From a virus: a stretch of 64,000 nucleotides of DNA. The notes under the pieces are model-generated. The model did no database searches. It saw only the letters and a program-made list of their open reading frames with translations, and was not told where the DNA came from. The stretch is from positions 1 through 64,000 of IMG/VR virus record IMGVR_UViG_3300027801_002650, one strand, 5' to 3'. Numbering within the stretch: the first letter of the stretch is position 1; the number at the start of each line of letters is the position of its first letter. Positions 12,363 to 41,501 of the stretch are shown piece by piece. The position numbers and the translations under genes were made by a program.

Positions 12363-13739
12363 ATGAATGATAATGTGATTGAATGGGGATTAAGTTTTGG
12401 ATCCCATGACTCGGCTATTTCGGTATTTATTAATGATCAACTTGTCTTTGCTACAGAAGGCGAAAGATGGTCCGGAATCAAGCACGATAAACAACTCCCT
12501 CCTAACCTCCTCAATTTCCTCAGAACAACTTACGGTAAACCTGCTAAAATATACTATTTTGAGGACCACTACAAAAAGGAACATCGGCGCAAAGAAGCAG
12601 GTCAACCTTCTAAACCGAAACCATCCATCTGGAACGGCAACGATGTCTTTCACTATGATTCCTGGATTCTTACTGGTCATCATCAATCACATGCTAGCTG
12701 GGGATATTATACTAGCCCATTTGATACATGCACCACCCTTGTTATCGACAGTATCGGCGAATGGGATACAATGTCTGTATGGAAATGCGCAAATGGAAAA
12801 ATGACAAAAATATCTGGATGGACTTACCCACAATCATTAGGACTGATGTATACTGCCGCAACCATAGCAGGTGGATGGAGAGGCAACGACGAAGAATACA
12901 AAATGATGGGTGCATCTGCCTTAGGGAATGGTGACAAAGAATACAATATCCTGAAAGAACTATTTGATTCAAAATACAACTTTCACAAAGGATGGGTATA
13001 TGAGGGTGATAGGTTTGAAATTGCTGCTGGTGCCCAGAAACTATACGAAAAGTGGTTACATAACATAACAACGAACATAACTGGCCCCATAGTTTTGACT
13101 GGGGGATGCGCACTCAATGTACGAGCAAACATGCTGATCAAAAATGATCTGTACGTACCACCTGCCCCGAATGATGCTGGATCAGCAATAGGTTGTGTCT
13201 TAGCGCATAAGAAACAAAAACTTGACATTTCTCCCTATCTAGGGTATAATATAATGAAGCCAATTGTTTTAGAGGAAATAGGTAAAGAATTGACAGACGA
13301 CGGCATAGTTGGAGTTGCACATGGTAAATGTGAGTTTGGGCCAAGAGCACTGGGTAACAGATCTATACTAGCCAATCCTAGAAAAAGGCACTGGAAAGAA
13401 AGACTGTGCAAGATAAAGAACCGAAGCAGTTGGAGACCATTTGGTTGCATCGTGAAAGAAGAAGACGTAAATAAGTATTTCTTGCGTGGAAAACCTTCCC
13501 CTTATATGAATACATGCTTCTTTGCCAACCAGAATATGAATGATTTTCCTGTAGAATTATTGCACGAAGATCAAACTGTTAGAGTGCAAACAATAACTTC
13601 TGACCATTACCTTTATCCTCTCCTCAACGACTTCCCAGTCCTAATAAACACGTCACTAAATATAAACGGGAAGCCAATCTGTAATAATGAGCAAGATGTG
13701 GAAGATTTCAAACGGGAAACAGGTATCGCTGTCCTATAA
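12363..13739 (+). CDS. carbamoyltransferase (NodU/CmcH/TobZ family)
   Basis: HDSA, HHQSHA, DSIGEW, SLGLMY, EYKMMG, GGCALN, DAGSAIG, EFGPRALGNRSILA, RVQT, NTSLN..GKPI. Confidence 0.93.
   Translation: MNDNVIEWGLSFGSHDSAISVFINDQLVFATEGERWSGIKHDKQLPPNLLNFLRTTYGKPAKIYYFEDHYKKEHRRKEAGQPSKPKPSIWNGNDVFHYDSWILTGHHQSHASWGYYTSPFDTCTTLVIDSIGEWDTMSVWKCANGKMTKISGWTYPQSLGLMYTAATIAGGWRGNDEEYKMMGASALGNGDKEYNILKELFDSKYNFHKGWVYEGDRFEIAAGAQKLYEKWLHNITTNITGPIVLTGGCALNVRANMLIKNDLYVPPAPNDAGSAIGCVLAHKKQKLDISPYLGYNIMKPIVLEEIGKELTDDGIVGVAHGKCEFGPRALGNRSILANPRKRHWKERLCKIKNRSSWRPFGCIVKEEDVNKYFLRGKPSPYMNTCFFANQNMNDFPVELLHEDQTVRVQTITSDHYLYPLLNDFPVLINTSLNINGKPICNNEQDVEDFKRETGIAVL
13222..13250 (+). promoter_or_regulatory. 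intragenic sigma70-type promoter
   Basis: aaaaacTTGACAtttctccctatctagggTATAAT, a perfect consensus with 17-bp spacer inside the carbamoyltransferase inter-domain linker. Confidence 0.75.
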
Positions 13740-14229
13740 TGAGATTGAGACCAATGATGTCCTAGAAATAGAAAACTTTTGGGTTCCATATTGGAAACAA
13801 CGAAGGTATATTAACTACGACATCAACTATCTTAAAATAGATAGAATGGAGACTTGTTTCATTTATAGAAATCATGGCGAGTTCTGTATGATGTCGGGTG
13901 TTGATGACATAAGCAATTTTATCCCGAATACATACAGAATATTAGTACGGGCAACCACAACACAATATGCCCCCAAAGTCTGGGGAAAGTACGTTGAAGA
14001 AAGATTTTTCTCAAATGTGGTCGCGGGAATCTCGTTAGATTGGTGCTTAGAAAAAGGCAAAGAAGTAGTAATCACAACAAACGTTGATTCCAGAATAACA
14101 AAGGTTGTCAGACGCAGTAAAAGAAAATGGTTACATGAAAGATCAATCGAAAACATATATGGAGTCGATCAGGTTGTTTGGGATATTGATTATGAAAGAT
14201 GCATAGATGATAGAACAATTAGATTTTGA
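13687..14229 (+). CDS. hypothetical protein (possibly GNAT-like fold)
   Basis: Operonic ORF. The fold guess rests only on the alpha/beta pattern. Confidence 0.5.
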   Translation: MSKMWKISNGKQVSLSYNEIETNDVLEIENFWVPYWKQRRYINYDINYLKIDRMETCFIYRNHGEFCMMSGVDDISNFIPNTYRILVRATTTQYAPKVWGKYVEERFFSNVVAGISLDWCLEKGKEVVITTNVDSRITKVVRRSKRKWLHERSIENIYGVDQVVWDIDYERCIDDRTIRF

Positions 14230-14665
14230 CGTTGACATAGAGTTAGTCAAATCTGAAATAAGAAAAATAATACCCGAATACGATGATCAAATACTTTTGC
14301 AGACAGTCAAAGGTAAGGATCCTTTTTATGGAGCTAGAGCAGGCATCGAGTTTACTGAGGGCGAGTTTCAATTCTGTGAGTTCTTTTGGACTGAGATGAC
14401 ATACACTAATTCTATACTGGCAAAGTTTAAATTGGTGAGAAGCAGACTTATGAATCTAAAAAGTAAGACGTGCCTGTCGTATCACAAAGATCCTACGCCA
14501 AGATTTCATATGCCAATCATCACGAACGAAAGTTGTTTTTTAATTATAGACAAAAAAGTACACCACCTCCCCGTGGGTAAGTGTTATATTATCGATAGCA
14601 CTTTACCACACACAGCAGTTAACGCATCCTTCGAGGATAGACTACACATTATAGGAACAATATGA
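14207..14665 (+). CDS. Asp/Asn beta-hydroxylase-like 2OG-Fe(II) oxygenase (cupin)
   Basis: HKD...RFHMPIITN...HTAVNAS...RLHII: HxD...H facial triad plus terminal Arg. Confidence 0.8.
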   Translation: MIEQLDFDVDIELVKSEIRKIIPEYDDQILLQTVKGKDPFYGARAGIEFTEGEFQFCEFFWTEMTYTNSILAKFKLVRSRLMNLKSKTCLSYHKDPTPRFHMPIITNESCFLIIDKKVHHLPVGKCYIIDSTLPHTAVNASFEDRLHIIGTI

Positions 14666-15306
14666 ACGGATCATTTCGCAAAATGATAAAGGAGACGATA
14701 CACGAGTCTCAAAAATGTCAGAGAAACTGGGATCTATCAAAACATATCTCAGAAGAAGACAAACAACTGATCTTAGAATCGGCAACAAATTGCCCCTCAA
14801 AGCAAAACCTCAACTACTATAAATTACACGTTATTGAGGATCGGGGGACTATTGAGAAGATACATGAAAAGACCAAAGGATTTGGTCCAATCTACTTTGA
14901 TTACAATCCAGAACAAAGAGAAGAGAATGCTTATGACGCCAGCAAGTCGGGAGAAATGTATACTAACTCTCAGACCTTGGCTCAATTGCTTTTAGCATTT
15001 ACTAAGAACGATGAAGGGTTGATCGAAAGAGAAAACGATGATGACTATGACGAGGATCGTGCAATGGCAGTTGGTATTGCCGCAGGATACGTCAATGTCG
15101 TTGCCACTCAACTTGGATATGCTACAGGATGTTGCAAGTGTATGGACGGAGATGAGATCGAAGAGATTTTAGGAGAGTCACCTATTTTACTTATGGGTGT
15201 TGGCGTTCCTGATAAGACTCGTAATCGCAGAGAACATCACACTGAGGATTTTGTATTTCCGACTCTTAAGAAAATGAAGAATATCGAAACAGTAATACAT
15301 TCATGA
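14662..15306 (+). CDS. nitroreductase-family flavoprotein
   Basis: QRNWD, CPSKQN, AVGIAAGY...AT.LGYATGCC, LLMGVG.P. Confidence 0.8.
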   Translation: MNGSFRKMIKETIHESQKCQRNWDLSKHISEEDKQLILESATNCPSKQNLNYYKLHVIEDRGTIEKIHEKTKGFGPIYFDYNPEQREENAYDASKSGEMYTNSQTLAQLLLAFTKNDEGLIERENDDDYDEDRAMAVGIAAGYVNVVATQLGYATGCCKCMDGDEIEEILGESPILLMGVGVPDKTRNRREHHTEDFVFPTLKKMKNIETVIHS

Positions 15307-15605
15307 TTCTGACAAATAGTATTATTAAAGTCAAGGGTGAGTTCGAAAGTAAAGAAGAAATAAAAAAGTATCTCTATAGTTTTATAGAAGATCACCCTTT
15401 CCGAAAATACAATCAGGAAATAGCAGACGAATTTGGAGAAGAATTGTTCTCTATGACATTTGTTCCGAAGGACACAGTTGTTTTAACCCAACGTTATCCT
15501 TCTGAAAAACATTACATAATAGCGAAACATTTCAGAGACGACATTATAGAAGTAATGAAAGATATCGTTGAATATTACGAACCAAGTGATCCAATATTGG
15601 TATAG
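15303..15605 (+). CDS. hypothetical protein
   Basis: ATGA overlap with the upstream stop codon; 100 aa. Confidence 0.65.
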   Translation: MILTNSIIKVKGEFESKEEIKKYLYSFIEDHPFRKYNQEIADEFGEELFSMTFVPKDTVVLTQRYPSEKHYIIAKHFRDDIIEVMKDIVEYYEPSDPILV

Positions 15606-15607
15606 TT

Positions 15608-16840
15608 ATGAAATTATGTATTATAGGAGGTAGCACTGCTGGTTGGTGGACTGCTGGATATTTTGAGAAACATATGCCCGATTGGGACATAACATTATAT
15701 GATTCCCCGAATATACCAGGATTAGGTGTTGGCGAATCAACTTTACCGCAACTCAAATGGTGGTGGGAAGAGTTAGGAATACAAGAAAAAGATTGGGTCA
15801 AAGAATCCAATGCTGTTTTAAAATATGGCAACTACAAAGAAGGGTGGAACGCACCCGAATTTGATAAACCATTCGTGACTCGCTTTTGGTTCAACGACGA
15901 TAATAAGTTTGACCAAATGATGGCAGACCCAGCCAACTTTGATAAGAATGGAAAGATAATCGAGGAAAACTTCTATAAGGAATTTGACTCCCCTGACTCT
16001 AGGTCAGATTATGCTTACCATGTTTGCGCAGAATCTGCTGCCGATATAGTAAGACAATCTTGTACACAAACTAAATACATTGAGGAAGAGGTGGATGAAT
16101 TGCCACCAGGTTTTGATTTGTATGTTGACGCAACAGGGTTTAAGCGAAAGTTTGTACAAGATTTTACAAAAATGAGTATTTCAGATTATCATTTTGTGGA
16201 TTCTGCTTGGGTTTGCCCCATGGAGAAATCTCCCAATGATGCTGATGTAACAAAATCAATTGCGAGAAAATATGGTTGGACGTTTGAAGTCAATTTACAG
16301 AATCGCGTGGGCATGGGTTATATACATTCAAGCAGTCACGTTAATAAAGAGGAAGCACTCAAAGAGTTTCGGGAAATTTATGGGGCACTTAATAGAACAC
16401 CCTTGTCCCCACAAGGAGGAGAAAGATTCATAAAGTGGGATCCAATGATCCTACAGAATCCCTGGTCAGACAATGTAGTTGCAATAGGAACATCTTCTGG
16501 TTTTGTAGATCCTCTTGAAGCAACTGCGTTGTTTATGACGCAAAGTGGTATTACGCAATTAGCGAATACTATCAAAAGAGGATACAGCAAGAAATCTTAC
16601 AATCGTGTGATGCGAAGAATATGGAATGACGGACTTAGATTTCAGCTGGCACACTACACTTTGAGCAGTCGAACGGATACACAGTTTTGGCTCGACTCAC
16701 AAAAAGGTGCCGACGAAAAATTTATCTGGGATAATTATCAAAAATACAGTGGCTCATATCAATGGATATTCCCAGATGGGATTTGGTGTCAACTGGGTAT
16801 ATACTTAAATAAAATGGAACACTATGCTCCTAAACTTTAA
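15608..16840 (+). CDS. tryptophan halogenase-family flavin-dependent enzyme
   Basis: IIGGSTAG, GVGEST, AVLKYG (catalytic-Lys position), AYH, DATGF, GFVDPLEAT, HYTLS.RTDT.FW. Confidence 0.88.
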   Translation: MKLCIIGGSTAGWWTAGYFEKHMPDWDITLYDSPNIPGLGVGESTLPQLKWWWEELGIQEKDWVKESNAVLKYGNYKEGWNAPEFDKPFVTRFWFNDDNKFDQMMADPANFDKNGKIIEENFYKEFDSPDSRSDYAYHVCAESAADIVRQSCTQTKYIEEEVDELPPGFDLYVDATGFKRKFVQDFTKMSISDYHFVDSAWVCPMEKSPNDADVTKSIARKYGWTFEVNLQNRVGMGYIHSSSHVNKEEALKEFREIYGALNRTPLSPQGGERFIKWDPMILQNPWSDNVVAIGTSSGFVDPLEATALFMTQSGITQLANTIKRGYSKKSYNRVMRRIWNDGLRFQLAHYTLSSRTDTQFWLDSQKGADEKFIWDNYQKYSGSYQWIFPDGIWCQLGIYLNKMEHYAPKL

Positions 16841-17048
16841 TCACTTAGCTGAGTCAAACTCATCCTACTGGCACCACTTCAAATACTCAGGGTTGTGTAC
16901 AATGTGTGCTGGTGCAGTATTTTTGCTAGGAATAGTTCATACATTTTTTCCGTTTATCGGTGACTGGTGGACAATTAGACTGTCAGAGAAAATATCAAAA
17001 ATAACATATGAACAATTTGGATATAAGAAACTACAAAAAAGAGACTGA
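16824..17048 (+). CDS. small membrane protein (DUF6356-like)
   Basis: HL....SYWHH...hydrophobic...VHTFFPF pattern. Confidence 0.55.
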   Translation: MLLNFNHLAESNSSYWHHFKYSGLCTMCAGAVFLLGIVHTFFPFIGDWWTIRLSEKISKITYEQFGYKKLQKRD

Positions 17049-17964
17049 GGAAATCATTCGTAAGTGGGAAAGAAAAGAGGATTTCACTTATTATACGTCA
17101 GGGTCAACAGGGGTGCCCAAGAAAATAACACATTCCTGGAAATTGATGACAGCTGTTGCTGAGGAGAATTGCCTCTATAATAACTATACAAAGAATGATG
17201 TAATAGTAAACGCATGCCTTCCAGCATCCTCAATCGGATATCCAGTTCTTTCTGTTTTACCTGCTTTGCTGACAGGATGCAGGTTGCAAACAATTGAGTT
17301 TAATCCTTATTCATATCTTGATGTGGTAAAGGAAGCAACTCATATGTTTATTCTTCCAGCAGTGTATAGAGTTATTAAAAAAACTGATAAATGGAAAAAA
17401 TTTGATTGTACTGGGAAAATAGTATCTTGTGGTGCTGACATTGTACCCGAGGGAATCAAGGAAGACGTTTTATCAAAAGGTGCTAAGAAGTTCCATCATT
17501 TATATGGATCGACAGAAGTGCCTCCTGCGATTTCCGACTCAGAAGATGAAAGACAGATCGGCCAAAACCTTTCGCCTTTGATTGATTACTATGTCGAGAA
17601 TGATGAACTGTTTATCAAATGGAAAAGTCAGGAATCATATTGGCAATCTGGGGACTTGGTCGATGAGAACATGAGAGTAACAGGCAGAAAGAAAAATATC
17701 CTAGCATTGAACTGTTCTCGCATACAACCTGAGACCATTGAGAGATACGTACTGGATAACACCAACGTAAATAAATGCCTGCTTACAACCAAAAAAGACA
17801 AGGTATGGATGTATTTTGATGGTGACGAAGAAAATGATGTTGTTAAAGAAAGGGTACAGGAGTGGTATAAAGATTCTCCTGTCACAGTAAAAAAAGTTGG
17901 CAAAATATTAGTCAACAAAATGAATAAACTAATAAGAACCGCACAGTACGAAGGAGTTTCATGA
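17008..17964 (+). CDS. short AMP-binding (ANL) adenylate-forming ligase
   Basis: YTSGSTGVPK, YGSTE, SGDL, GRKKN and a C-terminal Lys motif. Confidence 0.85.
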   Translation: MNNLDIRNYKKETEEIIRKWERKEDFTYYTSGSTGVPKKITHSWKLMTAVAEENCLYNNYTKNDVIVNACLPASSIGYPVLSVLPALLTGCRLQTIEFNPYSYLDVVKEATHMFILPAVYRVIKKTDKWKKFDCTGKIVSCGADIVPEGIKEDVLSKGAKKFHHLYGSTEVPPAISDSEDERQIGQNLSPLIDYYVENDELFIKWKSQESYWQSGDLVDENMRVTGRKKNILALNCSRIQPETIERYVLDNTNVNKCLLTTKKDKVWMYFDGDEENDVVKERVQEWYKDSPVTVKKVGKILVNKMNKLIRTAQYEGVS

Positions 17965-18725
17965 TCGGTTTTATCAATATAGTCAAATGTCTTATTGAAG
18001 ATTATAAGGTGGATAACGCATTTGATCTAGAACAGCTGATTCTCTTAAAACGAGAACATAATATGCAATTCTCGAATATGGGGGAGCCACCTACAAAGTT
18101 CGTTTATTATGACGAAGACCTAAAAGAATATAATATGATATTCATGTATCTCAGAGAAGCAGATATGATTGAGCAATATGTTGATTCCGTTAAGGATTCA
18201 GGGCAAACCAAATTTCCAGAAGAGTATATTGTTTCAAGATATGGCTCAATGTCAGACCTGAATGTTGCGATTAGACCTATCGACATTCCTGACACTCTTA
18301 TTTCAAAGATGAGGGCAACTTTAGAGTTAGGGCACATTAGATGGTCTGACAAAAAGAGATTTGCTAGCATTGATATTTCTACCGAAGATAAGTTTGTTAA
18401 GTGGATAAATACTAATGAGATAGATAAGATTTGGACAACCATACCAGAGGAATTGGATGGTGAAAACAAAGCAGAGCAATTTGAAATCTGGATTAGTCAA
18501 AAAGGAATAGCACTCAACGTTGAGTATCAAGTGAATGCTGATAACGATAACGTGAGATATTCTAAAGACCAAGAACAAATATCAGATGTGGTTCCTGCTG
18601 GTCTTAGTTTATACCAGGACGAACTCAAACAAGTTATTGATCAAGCAAAAACTGCTAAATTTTCTGATGAATTCTTTTCAGCATTAACTGGCGCAGGTGC
18701 AACAGTAGACAAAACACAATTTTGA
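17961..18725 (+). CDS. hypothetical protein
   Basis: ATGA-coupled ORF of 254 aa; no motif recognised. Confidence 0.7.
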   Translation: MIGFINIVKCLIEDYKVDNAFDLEQLILLKREHNMQFSNMGEPPTKFVYYDEDLKEYNMIFMYLREADMIEQYVDSVKDSGQTKFPEEYIVSRYGSMSDLNVAIRPIDIPDTLISKMRATLELGHIRWSDKKRFASIDISTEDKFVKWINTNEIDKIWTTIPEELDGENKAEQFEIWISQKGIALNVEYQVNADNDNVRYSKDQEQISDVVPAGLSLYQDELKQVIDQAKTAKFSDEFFSALTGAGATVDKTQF

Positions 18726-19801
18726 GCAAATATTTTTGTGCATCACCTTTTACCAGAATGACCAGGTCTCCGAATGGTGACCTGAGAACCTGCGTGTATT
18801 CCCCACCTTTAGAGGGAGAATACACAAACATTCTTAGTGCTTTCAAGTCTGACGAAATGGAGACAATTCGCCAAGAGATGAGAGACGGTAAACGAAGACC
18901 TGAATGTGAGTGGTGTTATTTTTATGATGAATCCAACCAATATTCCTGCCGACAAGACATAAACGAACGATACCCAGAACCACCATCTACACAGTTACGA
19001 GAATTAGATTTTGCTGCCTCAAACAAGTGCAACTACATTTGCGTAACTTGTGACGAGTCTGCTTCATCTGGATGGGAACAGAGAAACAAAGAATTTAGAT
19101 TTGCTGCTAATGAAATCAAACATAAATTACCTGCTGACCTATCAGGGATTAGCAATCTAAAACAATTAACAATCATGGGTGGTGAGCCAACTATTGAACC
19201 TTACTACACTAATGAGTTCTGGGATTTGATCGAGAGTAAGACAGACAAGAACTTGTGGTTCCAGATGGTCACAAACTGCTCAGCATTCCCCAGCAAAAGA
19301 TGGATGGATTTTCTCTCGGGTCTTGAGCATGTCAGCATAGGAATATCGTTAGACGGCATAGGAGAAGTCGGAGAGTTCTGCCGACTAGGTTGGAAAGAAC
19401 GACCTTGGCGCAAAAACTTTTTGAAATGGATGAAGTTTTTTGATAGAGGATATGAGCTTGGGTCAAGGCATGACGGACCTTGGATAAATATTGTACTTAG
19501 CAATTATAATATATTATTCAGTGCTAAGACTTTGAAATACGTTTCAGAGTTTGGTATGAGGCATCGAGTCATGCTCACAACTGCCTTTGAACCTGACTAC
19601 CTCTGTCCTGCATATCTTCCCGATAAATTTAAAGAAGAAATAGAGTTAATGGAGTATTTTGACGACAATCATCGAGACTTTGTTATTGACGTGTTAAAAA
19701 CAGGTGAGTACAGCGAACCTGTGTATAAGAAGTTCCAAGACTACACTAAATATTTAAACGCATTTGTGAAAGTACCAGAACCATGTCTACATTTTGTATG
19801 A
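18722..19801 (+). CDS. radical SAM protein with N-terminal twitch/SPASM-like domain
   Basis: CNYICVTC and GGEP; N-terminal CASPF...TC...CEWC. Confidence 0.9.
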   Translation: MSKYFCASPFTRMTRSPNGDLRTCVYSPPLEGEYTNILSAFKSDEMETIRQEMRDGKRRPECEWCYFYDESNQYSCRQDINERYPEPPSTQLRELDFAASNKCNYICVTCDESASSGWEQRNKEFRFAANEIKHKLPADLSGISNLKQLTIMGGEPTIEPYYTNEFWDLIESKTDKNLWFQMVTNCSAFPSKRWMDFLSGLEHVSIGISLDGIGEVGEFCRLGWKERPWRKNFLKWMKFFDRGYELGSRHDGPWINIVLSNYNILFSAKTLKYVSEFGMRHRVMLTTAFEPDYLCPAYLPDKFKEEIELMEYFDDNHRDFVIDVLKTGEYSEPVYKKFQDYTKYLNAFVKVPEPCLHFV

Positions 19802-21519: not shown

Positions 21520-22005
21520 ATGGAATTTCAGTTTGAAGTAAGAAGCAAAATATACCCAAGCAAAACCTGGGACACCACCGACCAGTTCTGTATCGATCAT
21601 GATCATTCTATACCAATGCATTATCAAAAACGCATACTTGAAATAGCATCGGAGTATGGCGTTTACAGAAAAATAGAAATGCTAAACGACGGCAAGGGCA
21701 TGAAGTTGTATGCTCGTCTACCTTCCCCAACAATGTTTTCTGAATGGCTAGCCAAAAGAATAGACTATTTCTATGAGGCAAAGAACTCAGAAACAGAAGA
21801 AGACATGGAGGGAGAGATCCCTTATTTTCCAAACTCTTTTCAAAAACGATGCTGGCATTTGTCAAACTTCTCTCCCTTGATTCCCTACGATATTTTTTGG
21901 GAGAATGTGCATAAAGCATTTGACCTCGCAGAACACGAATGCAAACTCAACTTAGACACTTTCAATGTTACAGCAAAAAAGGCATATCATGACCTTTATT
22001 CCTAA
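21520..22005 (+). CDS. hypothetical protein
   Basis: Operonic ORF of 161 aa. Confidence 0.7.
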   Translation: MEFQFEVRSKIYPSKTWDTTDQFCIDHDHSIPMHYQKRILEIASEYGVYRKIEMLNDGKGMKLYARLPSPTMFSEWLAKRIDYFYEAKNSETEEDMEGEIPYFPNSFQKRCWHLSNFSPLIPYDIFWENVHKAFDLAEHECKLNLDTFNVTAKKAYHDLYS

Positions 22006-33464: not shown

Positions 33465-34672
33465 GTTGTATTCTACCTTGGATCAATTTTGGTACAAATA
33501 TTTACGGGCGACCGAGAGTCTGTGGTTACTCTAACATAAATGCACAATGGAAGCATATGTTTGAGAAAAGAGGTTTACCATGGCCACCTACTAAAATTGA
33601 AGACACCCCAAAGGAAATCCTTGAAAGTGACTTTGCCAAAGAGTTCCAGACTTGGAATGGTAAGTTAGAAAAGCATGGTGTAAAAGAGCAGTGGAACAAC
33701 ATTTATTTTAGAGAGATTCGTGAAACATTTTTGAATGGTGAGTGGCCAGCAAACTGTGGCAGATGTAAGCATGTTGAAGAGTTGGGTGGCAAGTCAAAAC
33801 GCATAGACGAAAATGATATGTGGCATGACGAAAATCTGATCGTAGAAACAGAATATCCAAAGCACATCGATGTAAGAACTGGTACAGTCTGCAACTTTAA
33901 ATGTATTCATTGTAGTCCAAATGTTAGCTCGAAATGGGTTGAGGACAAGGAAGTCGCCATAAAATATGGAACCGAATACGTAGAAAATGATAATACTTGG
34001 ATAGCAAAAGATAATGACTTTTGGAATCAACTTGACATTTCTCAAATAAAAAGGTATAATTTCTTAGGTGGTGAATCGTTTTATAATAAAAGACATAACG
34101 AGTTTATCAAAAAACTGAATGAAAGCGAGTATGCGAATGAAATAGAAATCGCTTACGTCACCAATGGTTCGTTCAGATTTGAGAATATGGAAAACTTCAA
34201 AAAGGTAAGACTGAGATTGTCTGTTGACTGTGTAGAAACAGCAGGGGAATATTTTCGTTATGGATTAAAATGGGATGATTGGTGTGAAAACATTAAAAAA
34301 TTTCCGTCAAACTTTGACACATCCTTTCAATGGACTTGCAGTAATGTAAGCATGTTCTACTTAGTAGATACCTACAAGTTATTGCGCAAACAGTTTCCTG
34401 ACATTAGATTTTTGTTTGAGAATCATGTAACAGAACCCTACTATATGTCAGCACAAAATCTGCCCAGTAGCATCAAAGAAAAAATCAGTGACGAAATTGA
34501 TTTTGAAATAGATCCTTTTTACGTTAATTATATGTTTAAAAAAGATGGATGGTCAGAAAAAGGTGAAACTTTTATTAACTATCTAAACGATTTAGATAAA
34601 GCAAGAAAAACCAATTGGAGAAAAAGTCTGTGTGGTCTAGAGAAAGCATTGAGTGGATTGACGTTGAGCTAA
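33461..34672 (+). CDS. radical SAM protein with N-terminal twitch domain
   Basis: CNFKCIHC and GGES; N-terminal CILPW...VC...CGRC. Confidence 0.9.
   Translation: MSCILPWINFGTNIYGRPRVCGYSNINAQWKHMFEKRGLPWPPTKIEDTPKEILESDFAKEFQTWNGKLEKHGVKEQWNNIYFREIRETFLNGEWPANCGRCKHVEELGGKSKRIDENDMWHDENLIVETEYPKHIDVRTGTVCNFKCIHCSPNVSSKWVEDKEVAIKYGTEYVENDNTWIAKDNDFWNQLDISQIKRYNFLGGESFYNKRHNEFIKKLNESEYANEIEIAYVTNGSFRFENMENFKKVRLRLSVDCVETAGEYFRYGLKWDDWCENIKKFPSNFDTSFQWTCSNVSMFYLVDTYKLLRKQFPDIRFLFENHVTEPYYMSAQNLPSSIKEKISDEIDFEIDPFYVNYMFKKDGWSEKGETFINYLNDLDKARKTNWRKSLCGLEKALSGLTLS
34032..34060 (+). promoter_or_regulatory. intragenic sigma70-type promoter
   Basis: aacTTGACAtttctcaaataaaaaggTATAAT, a perfect consensus with the same flanks as the 13222 promoter. 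Confidence 0.75.
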
Positions 34673-35553
34673 CGTCATTTTGTAATATAGACTGCCCAGG
34701 TTGTTTCCGGCAAGTCAAAAGGGATAAGGTTGATCATCTTCTAAACAAAAGCATGATTACTTTAGATCAGATTAAAACATGGCTGACATACAAGAACTTT
34801 CCTAACGCAAAACTGGTCAACTTTTGTGGATCGATTGACGAACCTACCTTACATCCTGATATGTTGGCAATCTTAGACCACCTTGACGGCATAGACATTA
34901 ACATATCATCGAATGGCTCAACTAAGACAGAAAAGTTTTGGGGCGAGTTAGGAAAAAGAAAAATATCTGTTTTCTTTGGTCTTGACGGCATAGACCAGGA
35001 GTCACTTGAAAAATACAGGATAGGTGCAAACTTCAAAAAAGTGCAGGCAAATTGGAGAGCATTCATTAAGGCAGGTGGCAAAGCAACGTGGCAGTTTATA
35101 GCATTTGATCACAATGAGCACTTGATGGATGACGCCAAACGCATGGCAAAAAAAGAAGGATTTACTGACTTCAGATTGATTTATTCTCATAGAAATGAGA
35201 ACCAAGAGTCTAAGAAACTACAAAGAAAAGAAGAACAGACCATTGTATGTAAATATGGGGAGCAAAATAGAATCTTTATTAGTCACACAGGTGTGATGCT
35301 CCCTTGTTGCTTTTTGAACTCAGAGTTCCTACAGTCTTATGCTACAAAAGAATACCATACTGACTTTCAACAACTGTTCAAAAATACAGGTGACGTGCTG
35401 AACAACAGTTTGAAATATGCTGAGCCAGACGAAATCATTGACGGGGAATTGTGGAAAGAAATCGTTTCGTCGTGGGATCACAAACCAATATCAAGGTGTG
35501 AAACTACGTGCAAGCAAGCAAAGCAAGATGTATTTCTTGGAGAGACATTATGA
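34615..35553 (+). CDS. radical SAM protein with C-terminal SPASM/twitch-like domain
   Basis: CNIDCPGC, CGSIDEP; C-terminal C...PCC...CETTC. Confidence 0.9.
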   Translation: MEKKSVWSRESIEWIDVELTSFCNIDCPGCFRQVKRDKVDHLLNKSMITLDQIKTWLTYKNFPNAKLVNFCGSIDEPTLHPDMLAILDHLDGIDINISSNGSTKTEKFWGELGKRKISVFFGLDGIDQESLEKYRIGANFKKVQANWRAFIKAGGKATWQFIAFDHNEHLMDDAKRMAKKEGFTDFRLIYSHRNENQESKKLQRKEEQTIVCKYGEQNRIFISHTGVMLPCCFLNSEFLQSYATKEYHTDFQQLFKNTGDVLNNSLKYAEPDEIIDGELWKEIVSSWDHKPISRCETTCKQAKQDVFLGETL

Positions 35554-36281
35554 AGATAAGTGATTATCGTGAATATGCTAATCGTCTATCTGCATTACGA
35601 GAGAAATTGGCCGACATTGAAAAGGTCTTTTACAATGTTGAAAAAGAACAACGGGCGACGAAGTATGCTCAGGTAGGCAGGTGGATAGAGGGCAATCTGT
35701 CACAAGATTATTCACAGTCCTGGGAAGACTCAATGTCTGCTCAACAGTACGAATCTAAAAAATGGATGGTCGATGAAATAGCAAATCTTAAACCAAAGTT
35801 TGAATACTCCGAACCCTGCCACATTGAGGTTGTTGGTTCTTGGTTCGGGTGGCCATTGATGGAATACATTGATCATGCCTTTCCCAATATAAAACAGGTA
35901 GACCTGTATGATAAGGATGAACTGTGCCATCCTGTCATGGCTCAATACAAAAATCACTTTGCCCCTAAATATTCAGTCCACCAATTTGGTGATTGGTTTG
36001 AAAGAACTGATAAAAGAAGAAGGCAGGTGATCATTAATACTTCTGGTGAACACATGTCTAACATTTCTGCGAACAAAGAAATGTTCAAAGGAAATCCTCT
36101 TATTATCATAATGTCAAATGATTATTTTGATGGAGATGGCCACACTCACTGTGTCCCTGACGTAGAGGAACTTGTGCGTCAACAAAATCTCGGGGAAACC
36201 TATTACACTGGTACACGATCAATGCAGACTTATAACAGATTCATGGTGATTGGGAGAATGCATGCTGAAAGTACTGACTGA
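35508..36281 (+). CDS. class I SAM-dependent methyltransferase-like protein
   Basis: VVGSWFG (motif I-like), DLYDKD (motif II-like), INTSGEHM, RFMVIG. Likely start is ATG 35550. Confidence 0.65.
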   Translation: MQASKARCISWRDIMKISDYREYANRLSALREKLADIEKVFYNVEKEQRATKYAQVGRWIEGNLSQDYSQSWEDSMSAQQYESKKWMVDEIANLKPKFEYSEPCHIEVVGSWFGWPLMEYIDHAFPNIKQVDLYDKDELCHPVMAQYKNHFAPKYSVHQFGDWFERTDKRRRQVIINTSGEHMSNISANKEMFKGNPLIIIMSNDYFDGDGHTHCVPDVEELVRQQNLGETYYTGTRSMQTYNRFMVIGRMHAESTD

Positions 36282-37164
36282 CAAGGGACTGAAGACAGCA
36301 ACAGTCAGTCAATTAAAACAGAATACAAACTTTAAGGGATGGGTTTGCCAACCAAATCAATACGTTATTGACGTAGAGAAATGGACAGTTAGGCAAACAG
36401 TTTGCGGACACCCTGACGAACAATCTATTGGAGAGTTTGTCCCTATCAAAGAAACCATCTGCCCCAACGACAACTGTTTTTGTGGCAATGATATAGAAAT
36501 GAGAAAAGGAAAGACACACGATTTTCTTAAACTAATCAAACATGCCCCCGATAAGATTGACCCGTACAGAGGTGAGAAGATACTCGCCATCGATAATAAA
36601 AACAGAGTCAACGTCAACTTTTATACTGAAAAGAAATGCAATTATAGTTGCTCATACTGTGAACCTGAGAATCATTCATCTACTAAATCCATTGACATCG
36701 AAAAATACAAAGAGGCATGGAATACTGTAAATCCAAAAAATGTCTCTACCATAAATATATCTGGTGGCGAGCCAACACTCAACAAAAAATATATTGACTT
36801 TGTAAAATGGTTGAGCGAACACAATCCTTACGCACACATATCGACATCTACAAATGGATCTAAGTCTGCCGATTATCTTAGGCATCTTAATACATACTCT
36901 CACCTAGCGATAAGCATACATTTTGAATTTATTACAGAATCCTACATAAAAAAGTTACATAGGTTTCTTTCACACAGAAACGAAAACAAAAAGTCAGTAA
37001 GATTAAAATGCATGTTGCATCCAGAAAAAATCCAACAAGTAAAAAGTTTTATGGACGGATTCAAGGGATATCCGGACATCCAAGTTTCGGTCACTCCTTT
37101 GTGGACACCTGGTACAAAAGATATTATGGAATATGAGGAAGAAGTATGGAATTTAGTGACATAA
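36250..37164 (+). CDS. radical SAM protein with the Cys-rich auxiliary domain at the N-terminus
   Basis: CNYSCSYC, SGGEPT, STNG; N-terminal FKGWVC...VC...CPNDNCFC. Likely start is ATG 36262. Confidence 0.9.
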   Translation: MGECMLKVLTDKGLKTATVSQLKQNTNFKGWVCQPNQYVIDVEKWTVRQTVCGHPDEQSIGEFVPIKETICPNDNCFCGNDIEMRKGKTHDFLKLIKHAPDKIDPYRGEKILAIDNKNRVNVNFYTEKKCNYSCSYCEPENHSSTKSIDIEKYKEAWNTVNPKNVSTINISGGEPTLNKKYIDFVKWLSEHNPYAHISTSTNGSKSADYLRHLNTYSHLAISIHFEFITESYIKKLHRFLSHRNENKKSVRLKCMLHPEKIQQVKSFMDGFKGYPDIQVSVTPLWTPGTKDIMEYEEEVWNLVT

Positions 37165-38198
37165 GGCAAGTACATTTTGAACCATCACAGGGATGCAATG
37201 CTTCTTGTCCTATGTGTGACAGGAATCAAAATGGTGGGGCAGTTAATCATCACCTTACAAATGCTACGTGGACTGCTGAAGAGTTCATGAACAAGATAGA
37301 CTTTGAGTTTATCAAGAAAACCAACTTCTGGTATTTTTGTGGGAACCACGGGGATCCACATATGTGTGAGGACCTACCCAGAATTTGTGCGTGGATGAAA
37401 CAGAAAAATCCAGGGATTCGTTTACTTACCACAACAAATGGTGGAGCACGTGATGTGTCTTGGTGGGAAGAACTTGCACAATACTCAGAGGTCAACTTCT
37501 CCGTCGACGGACTAGAGGACACAAATCATCTCTATCGTCAAGGTGTGAGGTGGCAAAGGGTTGAGGAAAATATGGTAGCATTTTGTGAGGCAGGTGGTTT
37601 CGCGAAATGGACATTCCTTGTCTTTCGTCACAACGAGCATCAGGTTGAGGATGCTAGAAGATGGGCTACGGCACTTGGCGTAAAAGATTTTATTGTTAAA
37701 AAGTCAGGCAGGTATATCAACACTGCTACCCTGACTGAGAAGGATGGCCACCAAGCAGTCAACAAAAAGGGTGAAACGAAACAATACCTCGAGCAACCTT
37801 TGAATCCCAAATATCAGAACAAGGCACTGCCCCAGTACAAGGTGCTAGAGAAAAAGTATGGAACTTTTGATAAATACCTTGAGGTGTGTAAAATAGACTG
37901 TAAAGCAGAAGACAAAAAAGAAATCTATATCTCAGCAGAGGGATACACTTTTCCTTGTTGCTGGTTGGGTGGGCAACCTCTTAAGTGGTGGCGTAAACAA
38001 AAATCTGGTGATGTACATGATATGATTGGTGACTACGACCTGATAAACATAAAGAAGACACCCCTGAAAGAGATCATAACGGGTGGGTTCTTTAACCGAG
38101 TACAGGAATCTTGGACTGGTGACAGACTCAAGACCTGTGCGTTAAAGTGTAACTCCGGACAAGATAACTACGATCCTTTTTCAGCACAATGGCAGTAA
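37146..38198 (+). CDS. radical SAM protein with C-terminal SPASM/twitch-like domain
   Basis: CNASCPMC, CGNHGDP, TNGG; C-terminal C...FPCC...CALKC. Confidence 0.92.
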   Translation: MEFSDIRQVHFEPSQGCNASCPMCDRNQNGGAVNHHLTNATWTAEEFMNKIDFEFIKKTNFWYFCGNHGDPHMCEDLPRICAWMKQKNPGIRLLTTTNGGARDVSWWEELAQYSEVNFSVDGLEDTNHLYRQGVRWQRVEENMVAFCEAGGFAKWTFLVFRHNEHQVEDARRWATALGVKDFIVKKSGRYINTATLTEKDGHQAVNKKGETKQYLEQPLNPKYQNKALPQYKVLEKKYGTFDKYLEVCKIDCKAEDKKEIYISAEGYTFPCCWLGGQPLKWWRKQKSGDVHDMIGDYDLINIKKTPLKEIITGGFFNRVQESWTGDRLKTCALKCNSGQDNYDPFSAQWQ

Positions 38199-39298
38199 AA
38201 TTCTCACAAACTGACTTTACCAAAATCCCTTGGGACGATATTGAGATGGTGGGGCAATGGACGATGCTCCATCGCGACCTATTCAATGTGTCGTGGTTGC
38301 TTGGTAGATACTGTAACTACTCCTGCAGTTATTGCTGGCCGTATGCTTCAACCAAAAAGAAAGATTGGAGATCGGAAGACCTCGTACTGCTTACTATTGA
38401 AGAAATCAAACGACAGGCAAGAGAACGAGGATTTAACTCGTTCCACTTCTCATTCTCTGGTGGAGAACCCACCGTAGTTCCTACTCTTATTCCTCTCCTA
38501 GACAACCTCCGTGAAGATATTGGAAACTGTAACTGGCTGTCTACACACCTTACCTCTAACATTTCACGGAAAATGAAATGGTGGGAGGAATATTGCCAAC
38601 TAACTAAGGACTTTCATCGAGTATCAATCACAGCATCCTACCATAAAGAGCATATCAATACTCCTGAAAAGAGAGCAGACTTTGCTGATAAACTTGAATA
38701 TCTTCAGTCACAGGATGTGCAGGTAACGGTCAACTCAGTAATGATACCCGAGAGATTTGATCACCTCTGGGAAGACGCCAACTACTTCCATGAGAGGAAA
38801 ATCAACGTGACGTTGAAACCTCAGTCAGATCCCACAGCAAGTTTTGTGGTTGATGGATACACTGATGAGATGATGAATATACTTCACAATGGTTTACCTC
38901 AGCAAGATTTCACTGAAAGAAAAAGGCAGGTTGTCAGACCTACGTCAAAGTTCCCTCGCATGAAAGCGATTGACGGCCAACATTATCAGATTGAAATGCA
39001 GGACAAGGACGGGAAAACATGGCGACTTGACCAGGCAGAGAGGTTCAACTCCTTTGGTTTTAATAAGTTCAAAGGTTGGGACTGCTCATCAGGGTATCGT
39101 AGCATAATCATACGGGAACCTGACGGGTCGATCAAAAGAAGTTATAGCTGCTCGGACGAACCTTTGGGTTATATTAACAAAGGATTTAGATTATTTGATT
39201 CTCCTATGCCTTGCATCACTGATTCGTGTGTATCGAGTGCTGACTCTAAAATACCAAAACGGAAACCCTCGTCAAACGCAGATCTATGGTCCAGCTGA
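38189..39298 (+). CDS. radical SAM protein with C-terminal Cys-rich domain
   Basis: CNYSCSYC, SFSGGEPT; C-terminal FKGWDC...SC...CITDSC. Confidence 0.92.
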   Translation: MAVKFSQTDFTKIPWDDIEMVGQWTMLHRDLFNVSWLLGRYCNYSCSYCWPYASTKKKDWRSEDLVLLTIEEIKRQARERGFNSFHFSFSGGEPTVVPTLIPLLDNLREDIGNCNWLSTHLTSNISRKMKWWEEYCQLTKDFHRVSITASYHKEHINTPEKRADFADKLEYLQSQDVQVTVNSVMIPERFDHLWEDANYFHERKINVTLKPQSDPTASFVVDGYTDEMMNILHNGLPQQDFTERKRQVVRPTSKFPRMKAIDGQHYQIEMQDKDGKTWRLDQAERFNSFGFNKFKGWDCSSGYRSIIIREPDGSIKRSYSCSDEPLGYINKGFRLFDSPMPCITDSCVSSADSKIPKRKPSSNADLWSS

Positions 39299-39978
39299 AC
39301 ACCCTGAAGTGGGGAGATAAATACGACAATCAATATGTCAATCGACTGTACAGTCTACTTGGCAAGCACCTTGATCTGCCATTTGTCCTGAGAGTGTGGA
39401 CAGACAATAAGAAAGGTATTACCAATGAGTGCGAGTTTCGTGATATCCAAGATCTACGTCCATACGACACAGAACGAATGTTCACGTATGAAAAGTTAAT
39501 GCTAATAAATAATGATGAAGCAGATGTTAATGGTTGGCTAGACTTGGACATACATATCAACAAAAACATAACACATTTGGTATCTCGACCTCATCCTAAC
39601 ATTACTTTTATCTGGAACTATTGGAACAATTTTGCTGATATGAGTCTAGGACCTTATGGTAAAGGATCATCCTGTCACGTCAATAGTTCATTTGTATTTT
39701 GGGACAGGAACAAAGCGACGTGGTTACGTGAGTACACTGATCAAAACTGGGAGAAAATTGCTTGGACATACAAAAGTCTGGATAAGTATTTGTTCTATCA
39801 GCATGTAAGAAATAATAGATTGAGTTTTTGGGGTGATAATATATTCTCCAATTACAACGTGAATGGGGTAGAAGGATGCGTGACGTTGTTCAACACCTCC
39901 CACCTTTATAATAACAATATATCTGTAATGAAAAAACATTATGAACTCCACGAAACAGATTTATTCATGGTTAGTTAA
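39286..39978 (+). CDS. GT-A-fold glycosyltransferase-like protein
   Basis: LKWGDKY...YVNRL, WTD, DLD (DxD), NSSF. Confidence 0.7.
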   Translation: MVQLNTLKWGDKYDNQYVNRLYSLLGKHLDLPFVLRVWTDNKKGITNECEFRDIQDLRPYDTERMFTYEKLMLINNDEADVNGWLDLDIHINKNITHLVSRPHPNITFIWNYWNNFADMSLGPYGKGSSCHVNSSFVFWDRNKATWLREYTDQNWEKIAWTYKSLDKYLFYQHVRNNRLSFWGDNIFSNYNVNGVEGCVTLFNTSHLYNNNISVMKKHYELHETDLFMVS

Positions 39979-40348
39979 ACACGACGAACTAACCTTTGTC
40001 GCATGCAACGAGCTGGAACTGATGAGACAACTTGAAACCATGGGTGTAGAGGTCTGGAATATCAACTATGACATAAACTATAACACCGATGATAAAGTAA
40101 TCTGTAAAGATGCTATCTTTGATGACGTAGAGTTCCACGGATGCGTGGTTCATTGGAACTGCGAAAAGACCTACCCAATAGGCAGAATCCATAGTGGCGA
40201 GTTTATCCTCAGAGGAGACAACCAAAATCACAATGGTGACTGTAGTCCAATTAAAAACTGTGAACAACTGATTTCTCAGAATCAACTGAGTGAAGTTTAT
40301 GATATGTACCAGGATGGTGCTCACACATATGTATATGGAAGAACATGA
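39941..40348 (+). CDS. hypothetical protein, truncated methyltransferase-like
   Basis: VVHWNCEK...H..DC.PI...EQLI.QNQL resembles the C-terminal half of ORF 35508-36281. Confidence 0.5.
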   Translation: MNSTKQIYSWLVKHDELTFVACNELELMRQLETMGVEVWNINYDINYNTDDKVICKDAIFDDVEFHGCVVHWNCEKTYPIGRIHSGEFILRGDNQNHNGDCSPIKNCEQLISQNQLSEVYDMYQDGAHTYVYGRT

Positions 40349-40863
40349 CAATAGTCGTAATGGTTTGCACTGGCGATAAATACAATAAGAATGATGTTGC
40401 CAATATAGAATATCAATTGCACAACGTAGGGTTTGATTATGATCGTGCTCATGTAATCACAAGAGGCGAAGGATCAGTCTACGATAAACTCAAAATGTTT
40501 GAGCAATGTAAGAAAGACGAGAACTACGTCTACTTTGATTTAGACTTAATAATCAAAGATCCAATAGACGTGGTTAGAGATGAGTTTACTTTATTGTTTG
40601 CTTGGTGGAGACCGCCATTTCACACGCCACTTAACTCCTCAATAATGACATGGCGTGGTGACCGAAGTGATATAGCAAAAAACTTTAAACGAGAAAAATA
40701 TGACAAGGGAATAGACGAATATTTTTACAAAGAAGTCGAATATAAAATCTATGATAGAATAGCATGGTCTTGGTACTGGGACAAAAGAATGCACGATTTT
40801 CCTGTTTGTTTATTGAACCATAACGTAGAAACACCTGAATGGACTACAGAGTATATGCCGTAA
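40345..40863 (+). CDS. GT-A-fold glycosyltransferase-like protein
   Basis: GDKY, KL.MF, YFDLDLII (DxD), NSSIM.W. Confidence 0.7.
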   Translation: MTIVVMVCTGDKYNKNDVANIEYQLHNVGFDYDRAHVITRGEGSVYDKLKMFEQCKKDENYVYFDLDLIIKDPIDVVRDEFTLLFAWWRPPFHTPLNSSIMTWRGDRSDIAKNFKREKYDKGIDEYFYKEVEYKIYDRIAWSWYWDKRMHDFPVCLLNHNVETPEWTTEYMP

Positions 40864-41501
40864 GAATCGGGGAAGGGTACGGTCTCGAACACGAAACAAG
40901 ACTCGAAAAGCAGTTAGATATTAATTGGATTCGAGACGAAGAGGAAGGAGTTGCACTCCAATGGAACAAGCTAAGAGCATTCGAGGGCGAGGATTGCCCC
41001 GTGGTGCTAATCGACATTGACTTAGAGTTCATGAACGACTACAAAGATTTGTTTGAGTTGCCTGTTAAGAGGGGCGAGTTCCTGACTACAAAAAACTGGT
41101 ACGGGCAAGATAATCCTACAGCAATACATTACAAAATCGCAGGAGGATTTTACAAGTTTTGGCCAGAAGACACCAAATATATTTTAGATACGTTCAGAAA
41201 AGATAAACAATATTGGCAAAATCACTACATCGCTGAGGGAATAACCTGCGGACCTGTCAATGGGGAAATGAATTTTGTTGAAGATTGTGTCAGAGGGAGA
41301 ATCGGTGCCACCCCTCTGAAAATGAAATTTGTTCCAGATGCGTGGCATACTAAATGGAAAGATAAACCTGAAAAGGAATATATTTACCATATGTCAAAAT
41401 TATATGATAATGAATATTTATGGTTGGGAGATTTCCACCCCGATATTAAGCTGGTACACTACCAGCAGGGGAAAGATTTGCCTCATCATCAGGAACCTTA
41501 G
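40839..41501 (+). CDS. GT-A-fold glycosyltransferase-like protein
   Basis: RIG..YG, WNKL, LIDID (DxD), GGFYK, GE.NFV, KLVH. Confidence 0.65.
   Translation: MDYRVYAVRIGEGYGLEHETRLEKQLDINWIRDEEEGVALQWNKLRAFEGEDCPVVLIDIDLEFMNDYKDLFELPVKRGEFLTTKNWYGQDNPTAIHYKIAGGFYKFWPEDTKYILDTFRKDKQYWQNHYIAEGITCGPVNGEMNFVEDCVRGRIGATPLKMKFVPDAWHTKWKDKPEKEYIYHMSKLYDNEYLWLGDFHPDIKLVHYQQGKDLPHHQEP

Follow-up and report, generated by a model that had tools for sequence, protein, structure and literature searches.

The window analysed here comprises the first 64 kb (64,000 nucleotides) of the 80.8-kb IMG/VR virus record IMGVR_UViG_3300027801_002650 (designated G000; estimated completeness of about 50%). At positions 12363–41501 it carries a 29-kb island of 35 contiguous plus-strand open reading frames (ORFs), inserted in the late module of a T4-like phage and rich in radical S-adenosylmethionine (rSAM) enzymes. 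With a confidence slightly above even, we read the island as a late-expressed, wholly cytoplasmic pathway for sugar or glycan tailoring. This reading is favoured because the rSAM core is accompanied, in phages as well as in bacteria, by glycosyltransferases and by enzymes that act on nucleotide sugars or decorate sugars, and because ORF32 is predicted to adopt a GT-A glycosyltransferase fold, with ORF34 homologous to it. It is also favoured by ORF21, whose conservation resembles that of an enzyme with a fixed, small substrate, by the membership of ORF17 in the family of the sugar/inosamine amidinotransferase StrB1, and by the family of ORF1, which we take to include sugar O-carbamoyltransferases. 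In addition, the corresponding slot in pelagimyophages has been described (Zaragoza-Solas et al., 2020, PMC7029224) as a site of fibre genes, glycosyltransferases and rSAM cassettes.

Overlaps or abutments connect most neighbouring ORFs of the island, and the CxxxCxxC motif is present in exactly 14 of the 35. All 14 matched the Radical_SAM profile (PF04055), 10 of them above the cut-off of 29.5 bits and four below it (24–29 bits, E 5e-8 to 1.6e-6), and the rSAM matches of the whole 80.8-kb record all lie inside the island. The island is antisense to the flanking T4-type late module. On the left, the minus strand encodes gp20 (portal), gp19 (tube), gp18 (sheath), gp17/gp16 (terminase), gp15, gp14 and gp13, and the gp13-like neck/head–tail adaptor gene (11542–12327, minus strand; phrog_211, E 5e-33) forms the boundary. 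On the right, the minus strand carries genes for fibre-like, baseplate-wedge and giant virion proteins. The base composition of the island equals that of the rest of the phage, and the strand skews switch sign with the coding strand. The best cultured relatives of the portal protein come from cyanomyoviruses and share only 52% identity with it. In P-RSM4, the best cultured relative, a YadA-like fibre gene directly adjoins gp13, and the enzyme block is therefore an insertion with respect to the cultured relatives. No family of non-ribosomal peptide synthetases or polyketide synthases, transporters, integrases or replication proteins was found in Pfam scans of the 35 ORFs. These results agree with a first-pass annotation of the window, made from its letters alone, which had counted 35 contiguous ORFs with 14 intact motifs, had likewise noted the absence of these four kinds of gene, and had proposed a dedicated, co-oriented tailoring pathway in the slot between the fibre genes and gp13.

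The 35-nt gap between gp13 and ORF1 contains a divergent pair of CCTAAATA boxes (12331–12358), one directed toward gp13 and the other toward the island. The box occurs 10 times in the window against 2.2 expected, none of 100 shuffles reached 10, and further copies precede gp18 and a baseplate gene. These counts fit the late-type promoter that had been postulated at the island head; the box is plausibly a late-promoter element, which by itself does not prove the timing. Contigs identical to island genes also occur in RNA libraries, and they were not taken as transcription because DNA carry-over is possible.

The junctions were examined for the possibility of an assembly chimera, and the island is not one, since the left junction is bridged in other studies and the right junction is common to related contigs. 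Near-identical copies of positions 11001–21000 occur in 14 or more public runs, which belong to about 10 studies. An independent DNA run yielded a 3,161-nt contig corresponding to 11579–14739, across the gp13/island junction, with 38 differences, and a 13,253-nt contig from the same run carries on to 27962. The right junction, in which ORF32–35 meet two minus-strand genes followed by fibres, recurs in the related contigs L020 and L006, and the same convergent form was found in L023–L027, L032 and L049. Another run crosses the left junction with a 12-nt insertion, AATCTCGAGATT, at window position 12346, exactly between the divergent CCTAAATA boxes; it represents variation between strains in the putative promoter spacer.

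An all-against-all comparison divided the rSAM enzymes into seven paralogs (family A), four paralogs (family B) and three singletons. Family A consists of ORF10 (18722–19801, 186 bits, motif CNYICVTC), ORF11 (19783–20931, 182.6 bits), ORF15 (22704–23780, 194 bits), ORF19 (26385–27422, 160.6 bits), ORF21 (28188–29612, 392 bits), ORF23 (30743–31696, 180.6 bits) and ORF26 (33461–34672, 251.6 bits), where the scores refer to the NCBIfam family NF033640 (N_Twi_rSAM, twitch domain-containing radical SAM). Six of the seven passed its curated cut-off of 170 bits, ORF19 being narrowly short and best described as N-terminal-twitch-like. In this family, a Cys-rich auxiliary domain stands N-terminal to the CxxxCxxC motif; the invariant C16, C34, C98 and C101 precede C154, C158 and C161. 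Family B has a C-terminal SPASM-like domain and consists of ORF16 (23767–24720, PF04055 33.9 bits), ORF24 (31669–32634, 30.5 bits), ORF27 (34615–35553, 39.6 bits) and ORF30 (37146–38198, 40.8 bits). Against the SPASM profile PF13186 (cut-off 21.5 bits), ORF16 (22.6 bits) and ORF30 (22.3 bits) scored above and ORF24 (20.8 bits) and ORF27 (19.1 bits) below; C212, C231, C232, C295 and C299 are invariant in all four, and their CxxxCxxC motif begins at residues 17–23. The singletons are ORF22 (29605–30753, PF04055 31 bits, 16 Cys residues), ORF29 (36250–37164, 46.4 bits) and ORF31 (38189–39298, 52.2 bits).

ORF21 is the hallmark of the system and was found in 134 viral and 73 genome loci. The viral set consists of confirmed relatives in IMG/VR contigs at 54–89% identity; a further search of a protein collection gave 2,910 relatives, nearly all unnamed. 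About 150 of its 474 alignment columns are invariant among sequences that are 56–80% identical. In 52 of 80 related viral loci that were fetched, at least five CxxxCxxC ORFs lie within about 20 kb. Other records contain 11, 11 and 23 rSAM genes, and two T4-like genomes that are 100% complete by CheckV (G001 and G002) contain 15 and 16. The initial impression that the cluster is singular did not survive these counts. In G001, a complete 177-kb T4-like genome, the island lies a few kb from gp17–gp20 after the contig ends are joined. The ORF21 and ORF22 products of G001 are 77% and 75% identical to those of the window, as compared with 49% for portal, 53% for terminase and 43% for sheath; the island enzymes are therefore either much more constrained than the virion core or swapped between lineages.

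Clustering of all ORFs of the 80 loci showed a recurrent unit, which consists of cluster 3 (232 amino acids, DGD motif), cluster 2 (ORF28-like), often cluster 5 (74 amino acids), an ORF30-like SPASM enzyme, an ORF21-like twitch enzyme and, frequently, ORF31. Homologues of ORF30 adjoin those of ORF21 in 51 viral loci. ORF28 (35508–36281), also part of this core, appears to have a class I SAM-methyltransferase or spermidine-synthase-like fold, for which the evidence is weak and concordant (spermidine synthase profile E 1e-4; Atlas class I methyltransferase clusters 0.97). The 83 recurrent non-rSAM clusters include UDP-glucose/GDP-mannose dehydrogenases (2), a DegT/EryC1-type aminotransferase, a cytidylyltransferase, an FkbM methyltransferase, a carbamoyltransferase, and PhyH and TauD dioxygenases. 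Recurrent genes for iron–sulfur (Fe-S) supply (NifU, Nfu_N and FeS_assembly_P) and an FTR1 iron permease suggest that phages carrying them provision their own Fe-S enzymes. In a second phage lineage (L053, L062, L064, L066, L070 and L074), DUF59/FeS_assembly_P, NifU/Nfu and FTR1-type permease genes stand directly upstream of the rSAM arrays, and ClpS and ClpP are also found upstream there. Island content varies cassette-wise between relatives, and these differences, together with the paralog expansion (seven and four members), suggest product diversification.

A literature search yielded a single pertinent account: pelagimyophages have a ‘host recognition cluster’ that is hypervariable and lies between VrlC and gp14, and its slot contains fibres, glycosyltransferases and ‘radical SAM cassettes’, the last being named in passing (Zaragoza-Solas et al., 2020, PMC7029224). 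The pelagimyophage and cyanomyophage clusters share with the island the slot between fibre/VrlC and the neck genes gp13/gp14, the mixture of gene types and the gradual, cassette-wise variation; they were reported without families, counts or bacterial counterparts, whereas here a single 29-kb antisense enzyme block is present. A curli-type CsgG/CsgF operon is reported to occur in every marine pelagimyophage group (PMC7029224). CsgG (PF03783) was not found in G000–G003 and G005, two complete genomes included, and psbA was not found in the complete relatives examined; the clade is thus neither typical pelagimyophage nor cyanophage. A megablast search of the island and left flank against a collection of 50,697 cultured-phage records (August 2025) gave no match, and tblastn searches with ORF21, ORF31 and ORF17 gave remote partial matches or none. 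Islands of this kind form a widespread, modular class in uncultured marine phages, a class on which published work touches only briefly. Marine T4-like phages rank with the most abundant of all viruses on Earth, and in this case a third of the visible genome fragment encodes oxygen-sensitive Fe-S enzymes of uncharted chemistry; strong selection is implied, since such an enzyme investment is large.

Cellular counterparts were found in a scan of prokaryotes with one genome per species, which gave 73 ORF21 loci, 54 of them labelled Bdellovibrionota as counted from titles. Many of the Bdellovibrionota loci lie on large contigs or whole chromosomes, and one is from an isolate, Bdellovibrio sp. HCB2-146 (locus L100). 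In these loci, homologues of ORF21, ORF30, ORF31 and ORF28/cluster 2/cluster 3 stand side by side at about 50–60% identity (50–61% for ORF31). The HCB2-146 module is surrounded by five genes for family 2 glycosyltransferases (GT2) and one for a DUF2142-like membrane protein. Among 150 non-rSAM neighbours in 17 chromosomal loci, GT2 was the commonest family (13), followed by carbamoyltransferases and QueC-like proteins (three each), the rest being unrelated housekeeping genes. The linked orthologues and the carbamoyltransferase and QueC-like neighbours are as in the phage, while the bacterial loci differ in usually having 3–6 rSAM genes (14 in the window), in containing membrane proteins and in residing on chromosomes of predatory bacteria. 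In metagenomes, the N-terminal-twitch family counts thousands of members, and its link to glycosyltransferases gives a concrete substrate class. Bdellovibrio isolates with an orthologous core offer a culturable, genetically tractable entry point, which no cultured phage does; we place the island among the hypervariable glycan or auxiliary metabolic gene islands of phages, where its enzymology is unusual and a tractable model for it exists in bacteria.

At its downstream end, the island carries a block of four genes that comprises the glycosyltransferase candidates. For ORF32 (39286–39978), a model with a predicted local distance difference test score (pLDDT) of 68.6 gave 265 Foldseek matches in the PDB at E ≤0.001, and almost all of the matches listed were GT-A proteins. 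The best were LARGE1, LgtC and GT6 (E about 1e-6, TM-score 0.55–0.6), and the DxD motif D86-L87-D88 is invariant. On this model, ORF32 is with moderate confidence a GT-A-fold, retaining-type glycosyltransferase. ORF34 (40345–40863) is a GT-A-like paralog of ORF32 (in the DxD region, hhalign 93% and E 2e-7), and ORF35 (40839–41501) is possibly a third GT-like protein, with GDKYG and D-I-D motifs and an hhalign value to ORF32 of only 25%. Thus, from an original claim of three GT-A proteins, ORF32 stands by its fold and ORF34 by its homology to ORF32, and ORF35 was not secured. ORF33 (39941–40348, 135 amino acids) always accompanies ORF32, ORF34 and ORF35 (cluster 16 in 12 loci). Whichever way the rSAM array points, this block is convergent on the same two minus-strand genes beside the fibres (41446–42980; 193 and 318 amino acids), an arrangement also present in L020, L023–L027, L032 and L049; neither gene has a Pfam or PHROG family. 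For the ORF32, cluster-3, ORF35, ORF14 and ORF18 families, profile searches of the PDB sequences produced no usable match.

The proposed pathway would be organised around the twitch enzyme ORF21, the SPASM enzyme ORF30, the rSAM enzyme ORF31, the methyltransferase-fold ORF28 and the GT-A-like transferases, and the same core module is found in Bdellovibrionota, in loci of the polysaccharide type. To it the phage has added rSAM paralogs (seven twitch, four SPASM and three others) and putative decorating enzymes, namely the carbamoyltransferase, the amidinotransferase-like protein, the QueC-like carboxylate-activating ATPase, the aminotransferase-like protein, the 2-oxoglutarate (2OG) oxygenase(s), the flavoenzyme with the nitroreductase, and the ANL fragment. 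Host nucleotide sugars, or a sugar already bound to the acceptor, would undergo radical reactions, for example oxidation, epimerisation, dehydration or C–C rearrangement. The rewritten sugars might then be aminated, amidated, carbamoylated or methylated, with the oxygenase proteins also decorating, and the soluble GT-A-like ORF32 and ORF34, and perhaps ORF35, would pass the product to the acceptor. The families, paralogy, synteny, distribution and bacterial context were observed directly; the nature of the sugar, each single reaction and the acceptor are inferred. The glycan part of the earlier proposal, that a macromolecule or attached glycan is tailored, gains from the ORF32 fold, the bacterial GT2 context and the nucleotide-sugar enzymes of related islands.

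Several points weigh against sugar tailoring. The window has no nucleotidyltransferase, sugar dehydratase/epimerase, flippase or polymerase, and the pathway would therefore need to start from host sugars and, for an envelope target, to use host export. What the bacterial context offers is a correlation, drawn from DNA without annotation and from genomes that are mostly metagenome-assembled (MAGs), and GT2 enzymes can glycosylate peptides too. We found no solved or assayed member of the N-terminal-twitch rSAM family and no characterised close relative of any island enzyme. SPASM/twitch enzymes, moreover, are best known as peptide maturases. The ORF21 model (pLDDT 81) retrieved only generic rSAM cores in Foldseek (best E 2e-4, TM-score about 0.3), and a VIA structure search placed maturases of ribosomally synthesised peptides with post-translational modifications (RiPPs), viperin, BlsE and MoaA level at Z 8–9; because enzymes of peptides, nucleotides and sugars are tied, the fold cannot tell a sugar from a peptide substrate. 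The neighbours include BlsE (Z 8.4), DesII (Z 7.3) and AprD4 (Z 5.5). These enzymes and BtrN have the rSAM core, in some cases an auxiliary twitch cluster, and sugar-type substrates, and similar chemistry is proposed here. ORF21 differs in lacking sequence-level membership and in its N-terminal, permuted twitch domain, and it matches them no better than it matches the peptide maturases.

In a rival reading, the radical enzymes would act directly on a peptide or protein, either in a RiPP-like manner or on virion proteins such as the giant fibres, and would introduce cross-links, epimerisations or hydroxylations, with GT-like sugars being secondary. The SPASM/twitch architecture speaks for this, as do SkfB, CteB, anSME and SuiB among the top structural neighbours of ORF21, the Asp/Arg-hydroxylase-type oxygenase ORF3 and the position of the island amid virion genes behind a late-promoter-like box. 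These RiPP maturases share the rSAM core and an auxiliary Fe-S domain with the island enzymes and are the nearest solved structures, but the matches are generic (TM-score about 0.3) and the domain order of family A is permuted. No PqqD or RiPP recognition element (RRE), peptidase or ATP-binding cassette family was detected in the Pfam scans, which novel precursors could escape. An RRE would not fit into the short N-termini of family B, family A has its twitch domain at that place, and the island contains no detected precursor, protease or exporter. A conserved 74-amino-acid protein (cluster 5) lies within the core of many related viral loci and might be taken for a substrate; neither the window nor the Bdellovibrionota loci contain it, and, unlike a leader–core precursor, it is conserved over its full length. 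The small ORF5 and ORF7 are not conserved with the core, which itself travels with glycosyltransferases. Overall, we regard peptide or protein modification as unlikely. As an observation on the 74-amino-acid protein, its gene is located between the ORF28-like gene and the SPASM rSAM gene in 27 viral loci (L034–L060; for example, L034:1405–1626), with the consensus ...ESARALATMDATSVNIHQFNKQAHHNS.NWYKAVINWY...

The decorating enzymes raise another possibility, that a free small molecule (aminocyclitol, aminoglycoside-like or nucleoside-like) is made during infection and acts on the host or on competitors. ORF1 (12363–13739) is a carbamoyltransferase of the NodU/CmcH/TobZ type (PF16861 135 bits, PF02543 102 bits), ORF6 (15608–16840) is a flavoenzyme of the Trp_halogenase family (PF04820 205 bits), and ORF8 (17008–17964) is a partial ANL (AMP-binding) enzyme that covers only positions 166–358 of the profile (PF00501 55.5 bits). 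ORF17 (24723–25682) is a homologue of StrB1-type amidinotransferases (profile against StrB1 E 1e-32). Each of these would fit a small-molecule pathway, and BlsE, DesII and AprD4 belong to nucleoside and aminoglycoside pathways. The cultured T4-like marine cyanophage S-SCSM2R is reported to have a trio of AHBA_syn, amidinotransferase and rSAM genes, with the amidinotransferase and the rSAM ‘maturase’ side by side, and this trio was read as ‘antibiotic synthesis genes’ (PMC12801897). The likeness to this trio is by description only, with three genes there and 35 here, and tblastn searches with ORF17 and ORF31 found no S-SCSM2R-like phage in the August 2025 collection. In ORF17, Asp occupies the position of the nucleophile Cys and Asn that of a catalytic Asp, whereas both catalytic residues are kept by eight orthologues from other viral loci (GGAHDC versus GGAHC(C/F/L), and GGHVN versus GGHxD). 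Judging from these residues, the protein belongs to the StrB1/AGAT amidinotransferase family by descent and is probably not a canonical catalyst. The island also lacks a scaffold-forming enzyme, an exporter and a self-resistance gene, the structural matches are non-specific, and the three GT-like genes are fixed beside virion genes. A free small molecule is accordingly quite improbable in our view.

Hypermodification of the phage DNA, in which a derivative of 7-deazaguanine, or a modified pyrimidine bearing an exotic sugar, would protect against host nucleases, had been named as an alternative at the outset. T4-like phages classically glycosylate their DNA, some phage base modifications involve rSAM enzymes, and ORF20 (27386–28198) is QueC-like. 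The ORF20 match is marginal, however: it suggests a QueC-like or PP-loop ATPase (PF06508 23.3 bits; NAD synthase and QueC E 4e-4; 24 loci), and no FolE or QueD match was found in the island. TGT/DpdA (PF01702) was not found in G000, which is only about 50% complete and in which an absence is no proof, or in G001, G002, G003 and G005, and no member of the thymidylate-synthase family that includes hydroxymethylases (PF00303) was found in the complete G001 and G002 or in G000. In addition, the predicted fold of ORF32 is GT-A, and the T4 DNA glucosyltransferases are of the different GT-B type. These results weaken the DNA alternative, which we consider very unlikely.

With regard to the acceptor of a tailored sugar, virion proteins and the host envelope glycan receive about equal shares of our confidence, roughly a quarter each. 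A virion target is favoured because the enzymes are soluble and no flippase or polymerase is present, because a late-type CCTAAATA box stands at the island head, and because the ORF32–35 block is fixed, convergent, beside fibre genes. In a hydropathy scan of the island proteins, a membrane helix was predicted only in the 74-amino-acid ORF7, from which every island enzyme is taken to be soluble. The capsid glycans of the chlorovirus PBCV-1 and the glycosylated virions of mycobacteriophages offer a parallel, in that soluble GT-A-type transferases are encoded beside structural genes without membrane machinery, as here; the A-N-T tripeptide described below might be a non-canonical Asn motif of the kind that such systems use. 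Those two glycosylation systems are not known to involve rSAM enzymes. A host-envelope target is favoured by the membrane proteins in the bacterial context and by a published suggestion (PMC7029224). Should its product end up on virions or alter the surface of the host, the island would bear directly on host range and superinfection in the ocean.

The large virion proteins to the right of the island contain a possible acceptor motif. In the region formed by window 42984–64000 and L081 (G000 64001–80839), five such proteins together have 18 copies of the tripeptide A-N-T, where 3.2 would be expected; none of 500 shuffles reached 18, and no other tripeptide is as strongly enriched. The 35 island enzymes contain a single copy. 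In the closest relative, G006 (L167 and L168), 24 copies were found against 4.8 expected, about 6 of 14 aligned sites are shared, and the sites lie in non-repetitive sequence contexts. No enrichment was found in P-RSM4 (6 against 8.5 expected), in the island-bearing G001 or in small samples of G003, G008 and G009. When the AN/NT dipeptide bias is included (first-order expectation), the excess falls from about 5.7-fold to about 2-fold. Because the dipeptide bias shrinks the excess and G001 lacks it, A-N-T is a lead and not evidence for an acceptor motif.

As a speculation that we hold doubtful, the clade and Bdellovibrionota may share an rSAM ‘sugar foundry’ for exotic sugars found nowhere else, which the phage would place cytoplasmically on its own fibre and baseplate proteins, possibly at the A-N-T asparagines, with exchange of paralog cassettes between phages that are only distantly related diversifying a virion glycan coat. 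If this were true, variation of the coat would change the host range or hide the virion from recognition by hosts and grazers, the island enzymes would form a carbohydrate-active radical family not described before, and no earlier system of virion glycosylation would have depended on rSAM enzymes.

The remaining island genes, all on the plus strand, are as follows. ORF3 (14207–14665) is the Asp/Arg β-hydroxylase-type 2OG oxygenase mentioned above (PF05118 44.8 bits). ORF14 (21965–22741) is possibly a second cupin or 2OG oxygenase, a lead that comes from an Atlas neighbour cluster with Asp_Arg_Hydrox on 14% of its members; it had no Pfam or PDB match. ORF4 (14662–15306) is a nitroreductase-family flavoprotein (PF00881 40.7 bits) kept in 15 related loci. 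ORF25 (32631–33464) may be a short aminotransferase-like protein, for which the matches are weak (NF006967 E 6e-5; PDB 3g7q E 0.095) and an S-L-S-K motif is invariant. ORF18 (25634–26398) has a GDS motif only, without a Pfam or PDB match. When these assignments are set beside those of the first-pass annotation, the carbamoyltransferase, nitroreductase, halogenase-like, amidinotransferase-like and, in part, ANL proteins are supported by profiles. Its two 2OG oxygenases are reduced to ORF3, with ORF14 as a lead; its QueC-like ORF20, pyridoxal phosphate enzyme ORF25 and methyltransferase ORF28 remain tentative on weak support; and its SGNH-like assignment of ORF18 was not verified. ORF2 (13687–14229, 180 amino acids) and ORF9 (17961–18725, 254 amino acids) had no family in the Pfam and profile scans, and ORF5 (15303–15605, 100 amino acids), which contains no Cys, had no significant one. 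ORF7 (16824–17048), with its predicted membrane helix, matched DUF6356 under the cut-off. ORF12 (20907–21512) and ORF13 (21520–22005) belong to no family and are conserved with their neighbours in L002 and L008.

Some further occurrences of ORF21 homologues were observed. The MAG contigs L091–L095, L097, L099 and L102 carry phage-like rSAM arrays in which ORF21 is 51–84% identical to that of the window; the few marine MAG matches, at 55–84% identity, have such arrays in full, under labels of five phyla that are not related to one another. The labels of the listed contigs include Chloroflexota, Acidimicrobiaceae, Verrucomicrobiales, Gammaproteobacteria and Rickettsiales; these are probably phage contigs that were mis-binned. 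ORF21 homologues also occur in MAGs labelled Micavibrio, Dojkabacteria and Parcubacteria (L124, L147 and L160), where binning errors are possible. Members of these three groups live attached to other cells, as phages do, a pattern that is suggestive only. Finally, on the far left of the window, an ORF for a RuvC-like resolvase (phrog_159; 1152–1766) overlaps the end of the portal gene, at a place where T4 has head-assembly genes.

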